Source of the DNA: a virus
Lineage: Duplodnaviria; Heunggongvirae; Uroviricota; Caudoviricetes
Strand: one strand, 5' to 3'
Virus record (IMG/VR): IMGVR_UViG_2648501390_000011
Span: 1 to 7,926 of that record
DNA length: 7,926 nucleotides
Position numbers and translations under genes: made by a program. This document shows positions 1 to 7,926 of this stretch, piece by piece. A model generated the notes under the pieces. It did no database searches and was not told where the DNA came from. It was given only the letters and a program-made list of their open reading frames with translations. Each line of letters opens with the position of its first letter. The stretch's first letter is position 1.

Positions 1-967
1 CAGGGGAAAAATGTGCATAAATCATAGTCATTTTAATATCTGAATGCCCAAGAATATCTTTCAAAACGAGTATGTTTCCACCGTTCATCATAAAATGACT
101 GGCGAATGTATGGCGCAGAACATGGGTACACTGACCTTCAGGCAGTTCAATACCAGCCCGTTTGACCGCTCGTTCAAAAGCCTTTCTGCATGGCGTGAAT
201 AACTTCCCTCTGTTTTTGGGGAGTTCGTCATAGAGAGCCTGAGATATCGGTACTGTCCTATTTTTCTTTCCTTTCGTCTTTGTATAGGTAATACGGTATT
301 TTGATAATTGGTGGCCCTGTAAGTTTTCCGCTTCACTCCAGCGCGCGCCGGTAGCCAAGCATACCTTTGCGATCATCAACAGACTTGGATTTTGAGAGTT
401 TGCGCAGGCGTCAAGTAGGCGTTTAATTTCCTCCTGAGATAGGAATGCCAATTCACCTTCAGCAATTTTAAATGTTGGAAGCCCTGCCAATGGGTTTGGT
501 GCTGACCAGTGTCCTAGTTTTTTCAATGTGCCGAATACAGATGACAGGTTACGCTGCTCAAGATTAACCGTGCGAGGTTTTACGGGGGACATGAAAACAC
601 CGTCTTCATTTTTGACCTCCCCCTTTAATCTGGCTTCCCGATATTTTGTGAAATCACCTGCTGTCAGTTCCGAGGCAATAGGATTGCCGAGACCGGTACA
701 AATAATTTTTAATTTTGCCATCAAACGCTTTGGGTCAGCGAGTGTCTGACCATACAGGGAATACCACTGCTCAATCACTTCTGACAGTTGTCGCCGATCT
801 TCTTTTTCTCCTAGCCAAGGTTTCTTGTTTACCTCGTCCATGGTGAAATTCTCAAACGCAATGGCTTCGCCTTTCGTCGCAAATTGTTTGCGTACGCGTT
901 TGCCATCTCGCCCGTTTGGGTAGCATTCACATAACCACTTTCCGTTCGGCTGTTTTCTGATGGTCAT
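1..967 (-). CDS. int: Tyrosine recombinase (phage integrase, P2/186 type); N-terminus at 967, C-terminal end lies beyond the left edge of the window
   Basis: Own translation of the minus strand from ATG (967-965) gives an uninterrupted frame down to position 2: MTIRKQPNGKWLCECYPNGRDGKRVRKQFATKGEAIAFE...HVLRHTFASHFMMNGGNILVLKDILGHSDIKMTMIYAHFSP. It contains the HxLRHT box and the catalytic-Tyr region (MIYAHF) typical of tyrosine recombinases. Absent from the ORF track only because there is no in-window stop; the listed 88..336 minus ORF is an out-of-frame shadow. Confidence 0.9.
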   Translation of the reverse strand, partial: MTIRKQPNGKWLCECYPNGRDGKRVRKQFATKGEAIAFENFTMDEVNKKPWLGEKEDRRQLSEVIEQWYSLYGQTLADPKRLMAKLKIICTGLGNPIASELTAGDFTKYREARLKGEVKNEDGVFMSPVKPRTVNLEQRNLSSVFGTLKKLGHWSAPNPLAGLPTFKIAEGELAFLSQEEIKRLLDACANSQNPSLLMIAKVCLATGARWSEAENLQGHQLSKYRITYTKTKGKKNRTVPISQALYDELPKNRGKLFTPCRKAFERAVKRAGIELPEGQCTHVLRHTFASHFMMNGGNILVLKDILGHSDIKMTMIYAHFSP

Positions 968-968
968 A

Positions 969-1601
969 TCAAAGGCTCTTAATGATTTTCAGTGCGCGGC
1001 CTATTACCTCAATGTCATCCAGTTCGCACTCAAACGATGAATCATCCTGATGCACTACTAATCTGTTTCCCGGGAGTCGTGTCAATTTTACAATGCTTTT
1101 TATCCCGTCGATGTCCACTAACCACGTACCATTTACTGGTGGTGTTTGGTTGCGATCTATTAAATAAGAATCACCAGAAGTAGTCACCAGCAGCAGGTTG
1201 CTTGAGTCTGAGGGGAGTATGCTGCTATCAATGATTGCTTTTCCAGCATCGATCAGCAAACCTCCGTTGAGAGTTGCCTTGTCAATTTCAGGAGATACAA
1301 GCTCCGAAAGAGGTTTAACTTTGCTAGAGTTCACGGAATTGATATTTCTTTTAGGGTCAATGTTTGAACCTGGATCGCCCTGTCCGGTAGTTAGCCACAG
1401 TAAAGAAACTCCTGTTTCCAAAGCGCACTGAATCACCCATTCTGCAGGAAAACTATCTCTTAAGTATCTGTTTGCCATAGTGCTTTTTGATGCGCCCAAG
1501 TGATCGCAAAGTTGCTGTCTGGACTTGAAATCATAGGCTGCCATTAGCCTATGGATAGCCTCTCTTCCCCCTGTATTCTCGCCAGCTTTTACTTGTATCA
1601 T
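969..1601 (-). CDS. cI: Phage CI-type repressor (186 CI-like: N-terminal HTH, C-terminal oligomerisation domain)
   Basis: 210-aa ORF. The N-terminus (GGREAIHRLMAAYDFKSRQQLCDHLGASKSTMANRYLRDSFPAEWVIQCALETGVSLLWLTTGQG) matches my recollection of the Phage_CI_repr HTH family. RBS-like AGGA sits upstream of ATG 1601. The stop (TGA, 971-969) is 1 nt from the int ATG, and the gene faces away from a divergent early operon. Confidence 0.8.
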   Translation of the reverse strand: MIQVKAGENTGGREAIHRLMAAYDFKSRQQLCDHLGASKSTMANRYLRDSFPAEWVIQCALETGVSLLWLTTGQGDPGSNIDPKRNINSVNSSKVKPLSELVSPEIDKATLNGGLLIDAGKAIIDSSILPSDSSNLLLVTTSGDSYLIDRNQTPPVNGTWLVDIDGIKSIVKLTRLPGNRLVVHQDDSSFECELDDIEVIGRALKIIKSL

Positions 1602-1613
1602 TTTTTAATCCTG

Positions 1614-1642
1614 TTGACGTATCAAATATTGGATCGTAGTAT
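1614..1642 (+). promoter_or_regulatory. Candidate sigma70 early (pR-like) promoter: TTGACG -17 bp- TAGTAT
   Basis: TTGACG at 1614-1619, a 17-nt spacer, and TAGTAT at 1637-1642 lie in the 119-bp cI/apl intergenic region, oriented toward the + strand early operon that starts at 1721. Confidence 0.45.
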
Positions 1643-1665
1643 CTTGGTGTATCAAATATTGAATC
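1619..1665. repeat. Two copies of a 17-bp operator-like element (GTATCAAATATTGGATC / GTATCAAATATTGAATC), 30 bp apart, each an imperfect dyad around AATATT
   Basis: Direct read: 1619-1635 and 1649-1665 are 16/17 identical. Copy 1 occupies the promoter spacer and copy 2 lies just downstream of the -10. A third partial copy (AATCAAATA) is at 1662-1670. Confidence 0.5.
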
Positions 1666-1720
1666 AAATAAAACAAGATAAAACGACGTAAACCAAACCT
1701 TAATCGAGAGATACTGCACT

Positions 1721-1969
1721 ATGAGCAACGACATTTCAATTCGTGTACCAAAAGTGATGGCGACACCAGCTGAGTTCGCGGAATGGGAAGGCCGCTCTCG
1801 CGGTTCGGTATATCAAATGATTCATAATGGTAAACTCGCTAAATTCTTGGAAAGAAAAGAAAAACCGAAAGACAGAGTATGTATACGTTACCTTGAGTAC
1901 AAAAAGGAACAAGTCAGGAAAAACATGGGCCAATCCAATTTCAACTTTAATGTCATCGTTGGTGACTAA
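1721..1969 (+). CDS. apl: Small HTH DNA-binding protein, Apl/Cox-like (excisionase / early-lytic repressor role in 186/P2)
   Basis: 82-aa ORF, first gene of the rightward operon and divergent from cI. Basic, with an HTH-like segment (PAEFAEWEGRSRGSVYQMIHNGKL). Assignment rests on position and size relative to 186 apl / P2 cox. Confidence 0.6.
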   Translation: MSNDISIRVPKVMATPAEFAEWEGRSRGSVYQMIHNGKLAKFLERKEKPKDRVCIRYLEYKKEQVRKNMGQSNFNFNVIVGD

Positions 1970-2001
1970 GTTCAATTATGAGAACTTTCTAAGGGGGCAG
2001 C

Positions 2002-2511
2002 ATGTTTGATTACAAGATTTCCAAACATCCGCATTTTGATGAAGCCTGTAGAGCTTTTGCACTACGTCACAATATGGCAAAGCTGGCAGAACGTGCAGGA
2101 ATGAATGTTCAGACACTGCGAAACAAACTCAATCCAGATCAACCGCATCAGCTCACCGCACCAGAAATCTGGTTGCTTACCGATCTGACTGAAGATTCAA
2201 CGTTGGTAGACGGTTTTCTGGCACAGATTCATTGTCTGCCATGTGTTCCGATTAATGAGGTGGCAAAAGAGAAACTGCCGCATTACGTCATGAGTGCAAC
2301 TGCAGAGATCGGGCGTGTTGCTGCAGGTGCGGTATCTGGCGATGTAAAAACCAGTGCAGGTCGTCGTGATGCTATCAGCAGCATTAACTCTGTAACACGA
2401 CTGATGGCGCTGGCGGCTGTTTCATTGCAGGCCCGTTTACAGGCTAATCCTGCGATGGCAAGTGCAGTTGATACTGTAACTGGCCTCGGTGCGTCATTCG
2501 GTTTGCTGTGA
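2002..2511 (+). CDS. cII: Phage CII-family regulatory protein (186 CII-like)
   Basis: 169-aa ORF with a strong RBS (AAGGGGG) before ATG 2002. Size and position immediately after apl match 186 CII. The N-terminus (MFDYKISKHPHFDEACRAFALRHNMAKLAERAGMNVQTLRNKLNP) matches my recollection of the phage regulatory CII family. Confidence 0.7.
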   Translation: MFDYKISKHPHFDEACRAFALRHNMAKLAERAGMNVQTLRNKLNPDQPHQLTAPEIWLLTDLTEDSTLVDGFLAQIHCLPCVPINEVAKEKLPHYVMSATAEIGRVAAGAVSGDVKTSAGRRDAISSINSVTRLMALAAVSLQARLQANPAMASAVDTVTGLGASFGLL

Positions 2512-2518
2512 GGTGCTT

Positions 2519-2719
2519 ATGCTGACGAAAGAACCATCATTTGCATCGCTGCTGGTAAAACAAAGCCCGGCAATGCACTACGGTCACGGCTGGATCATGG
2601 GGGAGGATGGTAAACGCTGGCATCCGTGCCGTTCACAAGATGAATTGCTGGCAGAACTATCTACGAAAAAACGGGGGAACAAATGGCTATTGAAGGCGCT
2701 GCGGCGACTGTTCCATTAA
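2519..2719 (+). CDS. Hypothetical small early protein (occupies the fil/dhr position of the 186 early operon)
   Basis: ATG at 2519 preceded by GAGGTG, which overlaps the cII stop; 66 aa from this start (MLTKEPSFASLLVKQ...). The track's longer 2489 start is less likely. No recognisable motif. Confidence 0.4.
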   Translation: MLTKEPSFASLLVKQSPAMHYGHGWIMGEDGKRWHPCRSQDELLAELSTKKRGNKWLLKALRRLFH

Positions 2720-3552: not shown

Positions 3553-4406
3553 GCACCATCCTGAAATGGGCGGGAAATAAAACCGCCATTATGTCCGAAC
3601 TGAAAAAACACCTTCCTGCTGGCCCGCGACTGGTTGAACCTTTCGCGGGTTCCTGTGCTGTGATGATGGAGACGGATTACCCCAGCTATCTGGTTGCGGA
3701 TATTAATCCTGATTTAATCAACCTCTATAAAAAGGTTGCCGCTGATTGTGAATCGTTTATATCTCGCGCCAGAGTTTTATTTGAGATCGCAAACAGGGAG
3801 GTAGCTTATTACAACATAAGGCAGGAGTTTAATTACTCAACTGAAATTACTGATTTCATGAAAGCGGTATATTTCCTGTATCTCAATCGTCACGGTTACC
3901 GTGGTTTATGTCGCTATAACAAGAGTGGGCATTTCAACATTCCCTACGGTAATTATAAAAATCCGTATTTCCCTGAAAAAGAAATTCGCGCATTTGCAGA
4001 AAAAGCCCAGCGGGCAACGTTTATCTGCACCAGCTTTGATGAAACGCTGGCGATGTTGAAGGCGGGGGATGTGGTGTATTGCGATCCGCCGTATGACGGT
4101 ACGTTTTCCGGCTATCACACTGATGGTTTCACTGAAGATGACCAGTATCACCTAGCATCCGTTCTTGAACATCGATCATCTGAAGGACATCCGGTCATTG
4201 TTTCTAACAGTGACACATCCCTGATTCGTTCGCTGTATCGCAATTTTACTCACCACTATATCAAGGTAAAACGCAGCATCGGTGTGGCAGCTGGCGAGGG
4301 TAAATCAGCAACAGAAATCATCGCTGTTTCCGGGCCGCGCTGCTGGGTGGGATTTGATCCTTCGCGTGGCGTGGATAGTTCTGCCGTGTACGGAGTGCGT
4401 GCATGA
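3549..4406 (+). CDS. dam: DNA adenine methyltransferase, Dam-like (GATC-type N6-adenine MTase)
   Basis: GGAGG at 3538-3542 followed by ATG 3549. The 285-aa product has the SAM-binding motif ([10 protein letters not shown]), the catalytic DPPY motif ([10 protein letters not shown]) and long Dam-like stretches ([46 protein letters not shown]). The track's 3489 start is an upstream in-frame extension through the TraR-like gene. Confidence 0.9.
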
Positions 4407-6817
4407 GCCATGCTGATATGAACAACTGCAGCGGCTTTAACGAGATCGCCGCAGCATTCTCATGGAACAGCCCGAAAAAGGCCATTAACCCTTATCTGGA
4501 CCCGGCGGAAGTTGCGCCGGTTTCTGCGCTTTCAAACCTGATCACTCTGTACGCTGCCGATAACGAGCAGGAACAGCTGCGCCGTGAGGCGCTGAGTGAT
4601 CAGGTCTGGGAGCGTTATTTCTTTAATGAATCCCGTGATCCTGTCCAGCGCGAAATGGAGCAGGATAAGCTCATTAGTCGGGCAAAGCTGGCGCATGAGC
4701 AGCAGCGTTTTAATCCGGATATGGTCATTCTGGCGGACGTCAACGCCCAGCCTTCCCATATCAGCAAGCCGCTGATGCAACGTATTGAATACTTCAGCAG
4801 CCTGGGCAGGCCAAAGGCTTATTCCCGCTATTTGCGTGAGACGATTAAGCCATGTCTGGAACGACTGGAGCATGTACGCGAGAGTCAGCTATCCACTTCT
4901 TTTCGCTTTATGGCAAGCCATGAAGGGCTGGACGGCCTGCTGATTCTGCCTGAAATGAGTCAGGATCATGTGAAACGCCTGTCCACCCTGGTAGCTGCGC
5001 ATATGAGCATGTGCCTTGATGCAGCTTGTGGCGATTTGTATGCCACCGATGACGTTAAGCCAGAAGAAATCCGCAAGACATGGGAAAAGGTGGCGGCGGA
5101 AACCCTGCGTCTGGATGTCATCCCACCTGCGTTTGAGCAACTCCGTCGGAAAAGAAACCGCCGTAAACCCGTGCCCTATGAGCTCATTCCGGGTTCGCTG
5201 GCGCGTATGTTGTGCGGCGACTGGTGGTATCGGAAATTATGGAAGATGCGTTGCGAATGGCGGGAAGAGCAGTTGCGCGCTGTTTGCCTGGTCAGCAAAA
5301 AAGCATCTCCTTATGTCAGCTATGAAGCCGTGATGCATAAACGTGAGCAGCGCCGTAAGTCGCTGGAGTTTTTCCGTTCTCATGAACTGGTGAACGAAGA
5401 CGGCGACACGCTGGACATGGAGGATGTGGTAAACGCCAGCAGCAGCAACCCTGCGCATCGCCGCAATGAGATGATGGCCTGTGTTAAAGGTCTGGAGCTT
5501 ATCGCGGAAATGCGCGGTGACTGCGCCGTTTTCTACACTATCACCTGTCCGTCGCGTTTCCATTCCACGCTAAATAACGGCAGACCAAACCCGACCTGGA
5601 CAAACGCGACGGTAAGACAAAGCAGCGATTATCTGGTCGGCATGTTTGCTGCATTTCGTAAGGCGATGCACAAAGCCGGGTTGCGCTGGTATGGCGTGCG
5701 GGTGGCTGAGCCGCATCATGACGGCACAGTTCACTGGCACCTGTTGTGTTTCATGCGCAAAAAAGACCGCCGTGCCATTACTGCATTACTGCGTAAGTTT
5801 GCCATCCGTGAAGACCGCGAGGAGCTGGGCAATAACACTGGGCCGCGCTTTAAGTCTGAGTTGATTAACCCGCGCAAAGGAACGCCGACAAGCTACATCG
5901 CGAAATATATCAGTAAGAACATTGACGGTCGTGGTCTGGCTGGCGAGATCAGCAAGGAAACGGGTAAATCTCTGCGTGATAACGCTGAATACGTGAATGC
6001 CTGGGCGTCTCTGCATCGTGTTCAGCAATTCCGCTTCTTTGGTATTCCGGGGCGTCAGGCTTATCGTGAACTTCGCTTGCTGGCTGGTCAGGCGGCAAGG
6101 CAACAGGGTGACAAAAAAGCAGGTGCGCCGGTACTGGATAACCCGCGTCTTGATGCCATTCTGGCTGCTGCTGATGCTGGCTGTTTTGCCACCTACATCA
6201 TGAAGCAGGGCGGCGTGCTGGTTCCCCGCAAATATCACCTTATCAGAACAGCTTATGAAATTAACGAAGAGCCGACCGCCTATGGCGATCACGGTATTCG
6301 TATTTATGGCATCTGGTCACCCATTGCAGAGGGCAAGATCTGCACTCATGCCGTGAAGTGGAAAATGGTTCGTAAGGCCGTTGACGTTCAGGAGGCGGCA
6401 GCCGACCAGGGCGCTTGCGCCCCTTGGACTCGTGGCAATAACTGTCCCCTTGCTGAAAATTTGAACCAACAAGGGAAAGACAAATCAGCTTATGGGGATA
6501 CCAGAACGGACATTACCCGCATGGATGACAAGGAGTTGCACGATTACCTGCACAGTATGAGCAAAAAAGAGCGCCGGGAACTGGCTGCAAGGTTACGCCT
6601 GGTGAAACCGAAACGGCGTAAAGACTACAAACAGCGAATTACAGACCATCAGCGACAGCAGCTCGTCTATGAGCTGAAGTCCAGAGGATTTGATGGCAGC
6701 GAGAAAGAGGTCGGTTTACTCCTTCGCGGCGGCAGTATTCCGTCAGGAGCAGGCCTGCGTATCTTCTATCGGAACCAGCGTTTGCAGGAAGATGATAAGT
6801 GGCGGGATCTGTATTAA
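4403..6817 (+). CDS. A: Phage replication initiation endonuclease gpA (HUH rolling-circle initiator, P2 A family)
   Basis: 804-aa ORF. HUH metal-binding motif ([15 protein letters not shown]) and a downstream paired-tyrosine motif (YIAKYISKN), as in P2 gpA. The start overlaps the dam stop (ATGA at 4403-4406). Confidence 0.9.
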
Positions 6818-6909
6818 TTACGCGGGTTAACAATTCGTGCTCTTAATAATACCAGGCATATCAGGCTGATGAACGTAAAAAAACGTTTTACATCAGTAAG
6901 ATTATTATA

Positions 6910-6929
6910 TACTGTAAATATAAACAGTG
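6910..6929. promoter_or_regulatory. LexA (SOS) box, TACTGTAAATATAAACAGTG
   Basis: CTGT-N8-ACAG with an AT-rich spacer; 17/20 match to the E. coli consensus TACTGTATATATATACAGTA. It lies 40 bp upstream of the RBS (AGGAGG, 6960-6965) of the ORF at 6970 and overlaps candidate -10 hexamers. Confidence 0.7.
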
Positions 6930-6969
6930 GTTATGTATACAGTATTGCTTTGGTGTCATAGGAGGAAAG

Positions 6970-7158
6970 ATGCAGGACTATTTTTTGGAGTCTTTGAAGC
7001 TCCAGCGCATTGATTTTTTTCTTAAGCTTGTAGCGGCTAGTGAGTGTAGTGATGAAGAGAAGGGGCTGGCCCTGCAGTGGGTTTCTGAACTAACAGATGA
7101 ACTCATGGCAAAAATCAGAACCCACGAATACAACCGCTCAATGGATGTCATCAGCTGA
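6970..7158 (+). CDS. Small SOS-regulated protein, candidate N-terminal part of a Tum-like antirepressor
   Basis: 62-aa ORF with a strong RBS, directly downstream of the LexA box. Its stop (TGA 7156-7158) overlaps the RBS of the DinI-like ORF. Function inferred from context only. Confidence 0.5.
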   Translation: MQDYFLESLKLQRIDFFLKLVAASECSDEEKGLALQWVSELTDELMAKIRTHEYNRSMDVIS

Positions 7159-7168
7159 GGTGACTTTT

Positions 7169-7402
7169 ATGCGCATTGAAATAATGATCGATAAAGAGCA
7201 GAAGATTAGCCAGTCTACCCTGGACGCTCTGGAGTCCGAGCTTTACCGCAACCTGCGCCCCCTGTATCCCAAAACGGTAATTCGTATCCGCAAAGGTAGC
7301 TCTAACGGTGTGGAACTTACCGGACTGCAACTGGACGAAGAAAGAAAACAAGTGATGAAAATTATGCAGAAAGTGTGGGAAGACGACAGCTGGCTGCATT
7401 AA
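7169..7402 (+). CDS. dinI: DinI-family protein (SOS-inducible; DinI/Tum C-terminal-domain-like)
   Basis: GAGG at 7157-7160 followed by ATG 7169; 77 aa (MRIEIMIDKEQKISQSTLDALESELYRNLRPLYPKTVIRIRKGSSNGVELTGLQLDEERKQVMKIMQKVWEDDSWLH). Length and pattern match E. coli DinI as I recall it (MRIEV...start, acidic W-containing C-terminus). The track's 7097 start is an upstream extension in the same frame. Confidence 0.75.
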   Translation: MRIEIMIDKEQKISQSTLDALESELYRNLRPLYPKTVIRIRKGSSNGVELTGLQLDEERKQVMKIMQKVWEDDSWLH

Positions 7403-7537
7403 GAAACGTTGCTGGCGTCTGAACTTGCTTCTGGCGTCAGCAAGGTTGAACAACGAGCCCTTGCGAGGCGTTAGCTCTGTAGTGCATGTCTATGCCGCAT
7501 GAGATCGCATGATCGTTTGAGGATCGTTTTTGCTAAG

Positions 7538-7561
7538 GCCCGCCAGAACTGGCGGGCTTTT
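7538..7561 (+). terminator. Rho-independent terminator (GCCCGCCA-GAAC-TGGCGGGC-TTTT)
   Basis: Perfect 8-bp GC-rich stem with a 4-nt loop, followed by TTTT; 135 bp downstream of the dinI-like stop and upstream of the AT-rich cargo gene. Confidence 0.6.
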
Positions 7562-7726
7562 GCGTAGATCATGCAGGTGCATGAAAACCACTGCATAAAG
7601 CGGGCAGGCGTGGCGGGGATACGAGCGCGCGCAACAGTGTAACAATCTGGATCTAATGTGATATAGTTACTGTAAATATTATTAACTATTCTTATATGCA
7701 TTATTAAATATTTTAATGGAGCGTTT

Positions 7727-7926
7727 ATGGAAAAATATCAAGATGAGGAATATGTAGATGATTTAACTGAGCGTGTTTTTCTCATTAAGCAACAACTGGA
7801 AGCGGGAAAACTAAAAATAGCTCATCATCTTGTAGAAGGTTTTATTGAAAGTTTTAAAAGAATAAGGCTGCGACAGGATGGTAAAGTTGACCCTTCTACT
7901 GTTGATGGCAGAATAAGGGCTATGGG
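7727..7926 (+). CDS. Hypothetical protein, N-terminal 66 codons only (continues past the right edge); AT-rich accessory gene
   Basis: GGAG at 7718-7721 followed by ATG 7727. Own translation MEKYQDEEYVDDLTERVFLIKQQLEAGKLKIAHHLVEGFIESFKRIRLRQDGKVDPSTVDGRIRAM has no stop before the window end. By my count the first 64 nt are about 31% G+C, against about 52% in a sampled 60 nt of gpA. Confidence 0.55.
   Translation, partial: MEKYQDEEYVDDLTERVFLIKQQLEAGKLKIAHHLVEGFIESFKRIRLRQDGKVDPSTVDGRIRAM

Follow-up and report, generated by a model that had tools for sequence, protein, structure and literature searches.

A two-cistron tum module as the probable SOS-induction operon of a Fels-2-like prophage of the P2/186 family

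In phage 186, the p95 SOS operon (tum, orf97) encodes Tum as one open reading frame (ORF) of 146 aa, and the protein binds the CI repressor and keeps it from binding its operator (Shearwin et al. 1998, cited in PMC3121763). The 186 record also annotates an internal GTG behind a strong Shine-Dalgarno (SD) sequence, from which the DinI-like part is made alone as 'truncated Tum', indicating that the DinI-like module is separately expressed in 186 too. For Fels-2 and PSP3, a split of tum has been stated by Lemire et al. 2011 (PMC3121763), on the basis of Bunny et al. 2002 and of information from G. Christie (personal communication), and according to a personal communication cited there the antirepressor activity of PSP3 is encoded by the upstream gene alone. 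The GenBank record of PSP3 describes tumA as 'similar to 5' end 186 tum; UV induction of prophage' and tumB as 'similar to dinI and 3' end of 186 tum', and the Fels-2 record describes the second ORF as 'similar to TumB'. A split tum is thus already known, for Fels-2 and PSP3 from the literature (PMC3121763) and for PSP3 from GenBank. Moreover, the Phollow study (Nat Microbiol 2025, PMC12055606) constructed an in-frame deletion of tum (ECHS_RS04495) in DuoHS, a prophage of E. coli HS, and demonstrated that delta-tum and lexA(Ind-) each abolish mitomycin-C-induced lysis and virion formation of DuoHS. The module described below therefore carries little weight as a discovery, since the split has been described and a near-identical gene in DuoHS has already been deleted and found to be needed for SOS induction. 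Its practical value lies in annotation, as a 62-aa putative antirepressor belonging to no family would be the induction switch of a prophage type found in about 21% of complete E. coli genomes.

We analysed a stretch of 7,926 nucleotides of the IMG/VR virus record IMGVR_UViG_2648501390_000011 (hereafter the window), which represents the early and immunity genes of a Fels-2-type prophage belonging to the P2/186 family. The genes of this region and the features of the SOS module are as follows.

969-1601, minus strand: CI immunity repressor, 210 aa (PHROG 4 'transcriptional repressor', E 4e-39)
1721-1969, divergent from CI: Cox/Apl-like gene
2002-2511, divergent from CI: cII
3' end at 4406: DNA adenine methylase gene
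4403-6817: rolling-circle replicase gene A (Pfam Phage_GPA, 1e-126)
6887-6915, plus strand: putative SOS operon promoter, the p95 equivalent, with -35 TTTACA at 6887-6892, a 17-nt spacer and -10 TACTGT at 6910-6915
6910-6929, no strand assigned: LexA (SOS) box 1, TACTGTAAATATAAACAGTG, predicted, overlapping the -10
6925-6944, no strand assigned: probable second SOS box with the core GTGG-N8-ACAG at 6927-6942, overlapping box 1
6970-7158, plus strand: tumA, encoding a 62-aa putative antirepressor, a predicted helical hairpin, with the SD AGGAGG at 6960-6965
7169-7402, plus strand: tumB, encoding a 77-aa DinI-like protein, with the SD GAGGTGA at 7157-7163, which overlaps the tumA stop
7405-7447, plus strand: stable hairpin just past tumB, no U-tract (dG -23.5 kcal/mol, z -3.55; 0/200 shuffles fold as well)
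7535-7561, plus strand: intrinsic-terminator-like hairpin, GGCCCGCCAG...CUGGCGGGC followed by UUUU (dG -25.1 kcal/mol, z -3.98)

Gene A lies immediately 5' of the SOS operon, and CI, the Cox-like gene and cII are also present in the window. The gene order agrees with that of 186 (A, then the p95/LexA site, then tum), with that of Fels-2 and with that of PSP3, in which tumA and tumB are annotated. The module thus occupies the position of a Tum-type locus, namely the right end of the early region, after A, in a CI-bearing P2/186-like prophage. A search of the window against Rfam identified no RNA family.

An earlier note, made from the sequence alone, had recognised in this region a LexA-controlled induction module of the 186 Tum type, and the comparisons reported here bear it out. 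The LexA box that it had placed ahead of the small ORF was the sole match in the window at up to 3 mismatches from the LexA consensus, and 0/200 shuffles gave a match. This box holds an exact CTGT-N8-ACAG at 6912-6927, which is kept 5' of tumA in 30/38 loci across genera, and box 1 as a whole is identical in DuoHS of E. coli HS and in Fels-2. The promoter is putative and was assigned by homology to the layout of 186 p95, which is annotated as TTCACA, 18 nt and TACTGT, with the -10 within the LexA site, the same layout as in the window; a strict consensus promoter scan did not call the window promoter at 6887-6915. By sequence, a predicted LexA operator lies over this promoter directly upstream of the module, which is the arrangement of a Tum-type operon. 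The probable second box shares 1 nt with the first, such that two putative LexA boxes follow each other as CTGT-N8-ACAG at 6912-6927 and GTGG-N8-ACAG at 6927-6942. This double box was identified in 18/38 tumA loci; 186 and PSP3 carry a single one.

We also observed that a block of 42-46 nt of the operator shares 86-88% identity with the promoters of colicin N and a Klebsiella tRNase bacteriocin, and by the sequence criterion the operator would be classed as a double SOS box of the colicin type. The overlapping pair of SOS boxes in colicin operons is bound by two LexA dimers, resulting in very tight repression (PMC2994835). LexA would be expected to occupy both boxes of the window as well.

The relationship of the tumA product (ORF62) to 186 Tum was seen only by profile comparison. 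BLASTP of ORF62 against 186 Tum showed no similarity, while hhalign of a 30-sequence ORF62 profile against 186 Tum aligned residues 4-44 on residues 4-44 without a gap (probability 94.7%, E 6.4e-8). Similarity of the upstream ORF to the N-terminus of Tum, on which the earlier note had made its reading depend, is therefore present, and on these alignments ORF62 is homologous to the N-terminal (non-DinI) part of 186 Tum. The ORF62 profile also matched the 60-aa 'tum protein' of a Yersinia phage (probability 96.7%), and PSP3 TumA matched it weakly (E 0.004, probability 8.7%). At the closest range, ORF62 is 61/62 identical to ECHS_RS04495, the 'tum' of the E. coli HS prophage DuoHS. The AF2 model of TumA shows helices at residues 2-23 and 28-61 (pLDDT 89), predicting a two-helix hairpin. 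A Foldseek search of this model against the PDB returned generic helical hairpins, none at E <= 0.001, and PDB sequences searched with a TumA profile gave no match; nor did ORF62 match any Pfam or NCBIfam family. There is an annotation gap around this protein, which stands as 'unknown function' in PHROG 698 and as 'hypothetical protein' in RefSeq despite being the product of a very common induction gene.

The assignment of the second ORF to the DinI family was confirmed. TumB matched Pfam DinI (PF06183) at 81.3 bits against a cut-off of 24.2 (E 6.6e-23), PDB entry 1ghh (DinI; E 2.7e-6) and the C-terminal half (positions 71-148 of 151) of PHROG 189. It is 41% identical to residues 71-145 of 186 Tum (E 3e-24), which agrees with the 186 tum product described in the earlier note, a protein of about 146 aa with a DinI-like C-terminal part. 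Because of both alignments to Tum, the 62-aa and 77-aa ORFs correspond to the two halves of 186 Tum in order. Against the host DinI equivalog NCBIfam NF007893, TumB scored 42.7 bits, below the 111-bit cut-off; judged by these scores, it is a phage DinI-like paralog and not the host DinI. From its family membership, TumB may bind RecA filaments and modulate their co-protease activity.

We identified the module in 1125/5426 complete E. coli genomes (about 21%), with two genes in every sampled row that covers both ORFs. Outside this group the second gene is frequently missing, as tumA stood without any DinI-like gene within ~18 kb in 13/33 species loci and tumB was truncated in 4 more. Similarly, ESSI-2-like phages and a Yersinia phage carry a LexA box and a TumA-like ORF with no DinI gene. 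Among these sequences tumB is optional, and TumB would be dispensable for the switch.

The junction between the two ORFs was read correctly in the earlier note: the tumA stop (TGA at 7156-7158) overlaps the tumB SD, which lies 8 nt ahead of the ATG at 7169, and this ATG lies 10 nt past the tumA stop. The DinI-like frame, claimed to be open to at least 7097, extends open in the 5' direction as far as 7094 and contains an ATG at 7097. Relative to tumA this frame is +1, and a single +1 shift would fuse the ORFs into about 143 aa, within the expected 140-145 aa. On this basis three options had been put forward, of which the functional two-protein variant stood, whereas the frameshift-inactivated tum and the programmed frameshifting did not. 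We compared the junction across the phage records of Fels-2, SEN8, a Klebsiella phage, Yersinia MLG42 and PSP3 and across 33 loci from different Enterobacterales species. In all 21 loci with an intact tumB, tumA has its own stop (TGA in 5, TAA in 10 and TAG in 6), followed by a purine-rich SD and then by tumB's own ATG 9-12 nt on. The frame of tumB relative to tumA in these 21 loci is 0 in 6, +1 in 6 and +2 in 9; in PSP3, tumA and tumB are in frame with TAG and 3 nt between them. The 25-codon open extension of tumB is peculiar to the subclade of the window, Fels-2 and E. coli; elsewhere the extension is mostly 1-14 codons, with one locus at 21.

Selection on both genes was also examined. The pooled dN/dS was 0.085 for tumA and 0.073 for tumB, indicating strong purifying selection, and it was 0.047 in the tail of tumA (codons 43-62), where the +1 frame is open as well. 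Synonymous sites within the overlap had diverged strongly (pS 0.74), with no excess of synonymous conservation and no sign of dual coding. A search for fused relatives of ORF62 revealed none among 66 representative matches in 1.84 billion proteins and none in the best 120 of 484 matches from a set of 5.8 billion clusters, all of which were 55-109 aa. For the N-terminal half of 186 Tum, most close relatives stand alone as proteins of 62-92 aa, and several carry the name 'Tum protein'. Because fused relatives of ORF62 were absent from these matches and the relatives of the Tum N-terminal half are mostly this short, the stand-alone form of ~60 aa is, among the sequences searched, the rule and the 186 fusion the exception. 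A hairpin at 7147-7164, which contains the tumA stop and the tumB SD, was tried as a translational-coupling element and rejected, given its z of -1.2 against shuffles and its lack of conservation; across junction types the z of the junction hairpin ranged from -2.0 to +1.0.

These comparisons bear directly on the two frameshift readings. A 1-nt indel, real or a sequencing error, could have split a 146-aa ancestor and left an inactivated tum in a non-inducible prophage, and both the 25 codons over which the tumB frame is open upstream, so that a single +1 shift gives ~143 aa, and the fused tum of 186 agree with such an event. However, the 1125/5426 complete E. coli genomes show the same split, as do 33 other species; with the module recurring in so many E. 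coli genomes, annotated as two genes in every sampled row that covers both ORFs, the sequencing indel suspected at the junction is excluded. Moreover, the dN/dS stays below 0.1 in both halves, the tumA tail included, each ORF retains its SD and ATG, all three relative frames occur among homologs, and even near kin of the 186 Tum N-terminal half mostly stand alone. The DuoHS module, 98% identical, works and is needed for induction (PMC12055606). Altogether, we leave the inactivated gene practically no chance. The other frameshift reading proposes programmed +1 frameshifting or transcriptional slippage at an A5 run (GCA AAA ATC, 7111-7119), yielding a fused product besides the two separate ones. 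The A5 run lies in the open overlap of the window, Fels-2 and DuoHS, and tRNA-Lys could re-pair there in +1. Nevertheless, five A residues are too few for efficient slippage, synonymous changes (GCG AAA, GCC AAA, GCG AAG) break the run in most homologs, and the +1 frame over the tumA tail contains stop codons in 27/34 tumA sequences compared. Furthermore, the relative frame of tumB differs by clade, with PSP3 and others in frame behind a stop codon, the synonymous sites of the overlap lack excess conservation, and the junction hairpin is neither significant nor conserved. Programmed frameshifting is recognised by a conserved slippery site with an open frame and by a constant frame relationship; we found neither, and this reading is very improbable. 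The earlier note had itself named separate ORFs in all homologous prophages as the observation that would speak against a frameshift, and this is what the homologs show: always two ORFs, with their own stop and ribosome-binding site, in a varying frame.

Two hairpins follow the two-cistron module. The one at 7405-7447 lies at the position of 186 t95a, and a similar sequence occurs directly 3' of tumA in loci without tumB; it is possibly a partial terminator or a transcript-stabilising element. The GC-rich hairpin at 7535-7561, which has only 4 U and was missed by a strict terminator scan, would end the operon. A block at 7484-7634 is kept in Fels-2 and DuoHS, 3' of their extra gene.

Taken together, we consider it highly probable that the region serves a Fels-2-like (P2/186 family) prophage as its SOS-induction operon and that it has the normal two-cistron form, with TumA as the antirepressor and TumB as an accessory protein. 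In the undamaged cell, LexA would sit on the double colicin-type operator over the -10 and the operon would be silent. Upon DNA damage, RecA would be activated and LexA would cleave itself, allowing the tumA-tumB mRNA to be made. TumA, as a homolog of the N-terminal part of Tum, would then inactivate the prophage CI non-covalently, such that the lytic promoter becomes active and prophage induction follows. TumB would be translated independently from its own SD and ATG, 10 nt past the tumA stop. Judging from DinI and the 'truncated Tum' of 186, its most likely role is to modulate the activity of RecA filaments and thereby to tune the SOS signal. The anatomy of the module, its homology to tum and the conservation of its two cistrons were observed directly in the sequences compared. 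A requirement for tumA and a cleavable LexA in mitomycin C induction was demonstrated with the 98% identical ortholog (PMC12055606) and, by analogy, would hold for the window element. Because the deletion of tum in DuoHS abolishes induction and the gene product is 61/62 identical, the role of ORF62 in SOS-dependent induction is established for an element that is virtually the same. The published DuoHS deletion takes out tumA only, which counts as a caveat for this explanation.

The presumed target of TumA is CI, by analogy with 186. Across 325 pairs of loci, TumA did not co-vary with CI (Spearman 0.01), and identical TumA proteins stand beside CIs whose N-terminal domains share 49-67% identity and whose C-terminal domains share 24-37%. 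Because TumA identity does not track CI identity, direct and specific binding of CI draws no support from co-variation and relies on the analogy with 186. The part of CI that is conserved across immunity types is N-terminal, at residues ~11-75. We tentatively propose, with less than even confidence, that TumA of the Fels-2 group might be a generic antirepressor, docking on this conserved N-terminal HTH region of CI (residues ~11-75) and not immunity-specific. If this is true, the TumA that one prophage makes in response to SOS would also induce heteroimmune P2-like prophages sharing the cell, and the colicin-type double LexA operator would make it a tightly repressed trigger, possibly late-firing by analogy with colicins. 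Alternatively, the null result may call the assumption of a CI target into question.

The lack of co-variation also agrees with a reading in which TumA induces the prophage by acting not on CI but on something else, such as a host factor or a different pro-lysogenic regulator. We regard this as unlikely, since 186 Tum binds CI and prevents it from binding its operator (Shearwin et al. 1998, cited in PMC3121763), ORF62 is homologous to that part of Tum, and the conserved N-terminal domain of CI (residues 11-75) could be a common docking surface. A different possibility is that TumA and TumB form an obligate two-subunit antirepressor, a non-covalent complex that reproduces the fused Tum of 186, in line with the tight linkage and co-transcription of the two genes and with their fusion in 186. 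This is less probable still, because tumB is missing from the 13/33 species loci and from the ESSI-2-like and Yersinia phages and is truncated in 4 more loci, because the upstream gene of PSP3 alone gives activity (personal communication cited in PMC3121763), and because 186 itself makes the DinI-like part separately from the internal GTG. Induction by TumA acting on CI, with TumB as an accessory, is thus the reading that we retain.

The module of the window lies at the same genome position as tum of 186, right of gene A. In both the window and 186 p95 the LexA box lies over the -10, and the N-terminal ~45 residues and the DinI-like module of Tum are homologous to TumA and TumB, respectively. 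In contrast to the single ORF and the single LexA box of 186, the window has two cistrons and a double, colicin-like operator; a downstream orf97 homolog, present in 186 and Fels-2, is absent from the window. The Fels-2 genes STM2728/STM2726.1 have the same two-gene layout, and their proteins are 98% and 100% identical to those of the window. PSP3 tumA is distant in sequence from the window tumA, is in frame with tumB and is preceded by a single LexA box. Another near-identical element is DuoHS, in which TumA is 61/62 identical and TumB identical to the proteins of the window; LexA box 1, the tumA SD and the tumA-tumB junction are identical too, and a few bases of the second SOS box are the only differences in the promoter/leader. 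In the HS genome, ECHS_RS04495 is a 189-nt gene for a 'hypothetical protein' with a DinI-like gene 10 nt on. DuoHS differs from the window in its CI immunity type, the N-terminal domain being 67% and the C-terminal domain 33% identical, and in the cargo genes 3' of tumB. The dinI-gfoA and gftA operons of the Gifsy prophages work on the same principle, with LexA repressing an operon in which a DinI homolog is paired with a small antirepressor that binds the repressor non-covalently (PMC3121763), but there dinI comes first, in the reverse order, and the phages are lambdoid whereas that of the window is P2-like; no similarity between the Gifsy antirepressors and TumA was found in this analysis. 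Finally, colicin operons and the window share two overlapping LexA boxes, near-identical over ~42 nt in both; colicin operators drive a bacteriocin and lysis operon, whereas the operator of the window would drive a prophage antirepressor.

We found that the window is a mosaic. It shares 92-97% identity with other prophages of the E. coli group over a stretch that begins at window 2001-2682 and finishes at about 7400-7631, the ends varying by relative. When window 1-2000 and 7640-7926 were compared with three related loci (L011, L012 and L045), different alleles were seen in the immunity and cargo regions alike.

The relationship between the antirepressor TumA and its presumed target, the immunity repressor CI, was considered across the window and loci L011-L045. 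Co-variation between the two proteins was absent in this set (Spearman 0.01, 325 pairs), and the conserved portion of CI was confined to residues 11-75. Among CIs paired with identical TumA proteins, the C-terminal domains shared just 24-37% identity and the N-terminal domains 49-67%.

The cargo region lies in the interval from tumB to the portal gene, a variable hotspot, and the window holds only the beginning of one gene there:

7728-7926, start of an AT-rich cargo ORF, 3' of the operon terminator and extending past the window end

At full length the gene was identified at 4088-5761 of another comparison locus (L048), where it encodes a 557-aa protein that was present in just 17 of 5426 E. 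coli genomes. This protein had no match in Pfam, and the PADLOC search returned weak matches to DitB (7e-10) and LeoBC; the cargo gene may be a defence gene.

The slot occupied by tumB also varies. In a Pseudescherichia MAG (L027), a UmuD-like ORF (MGFPSPAQDY...) about 100 nt 3' of tumA replaces tumB, and it is an alternative SOS-related partner gene sharing this slot. Separately, in Escherichia phage 500465-1 (NC_049342; locus L004, 800-1131 of that locus), the tumB homolog has lost one nucleotide from each of two homopolymers (GAAATAATG became GAATAATG, and TGGGAAG became TGGAAG). Both deletions are probably sequencing errors, and because of them a 105-aa 'DinI' was mis-annotated there.

Immediately 3' of the tumB stop, we observed a hairpin of very high stability that lacks a U-tract (window 7405-7447; dG -23.5, z -3.55), and related sequence lies directly 3' of tumA in loci without tumB. 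Whereas Fels-2 and 186 carry an orf97-like 243-aa gene after tumB, comparison of window 7403-7640 with 3584-4575 of the Fels-2 locus (L001) showed that this gene is absent from the window, which keeps just the conserved terminator block of about 150 bp (7484-7634) from the Fels-2 post-tumB region.

Upstream of tumA, the following element was predicted from the sequence:

6910-6942, predicted tumA operator with two overlapping SOS boxes

The operators of colicin N and a Klebsiella bacteriocin are 86-88% identical to it over 42-46 nt, and 18 of the 38 tumA loci carry the double box. By contrast, 186 and PSP3 have a single SOS box each.
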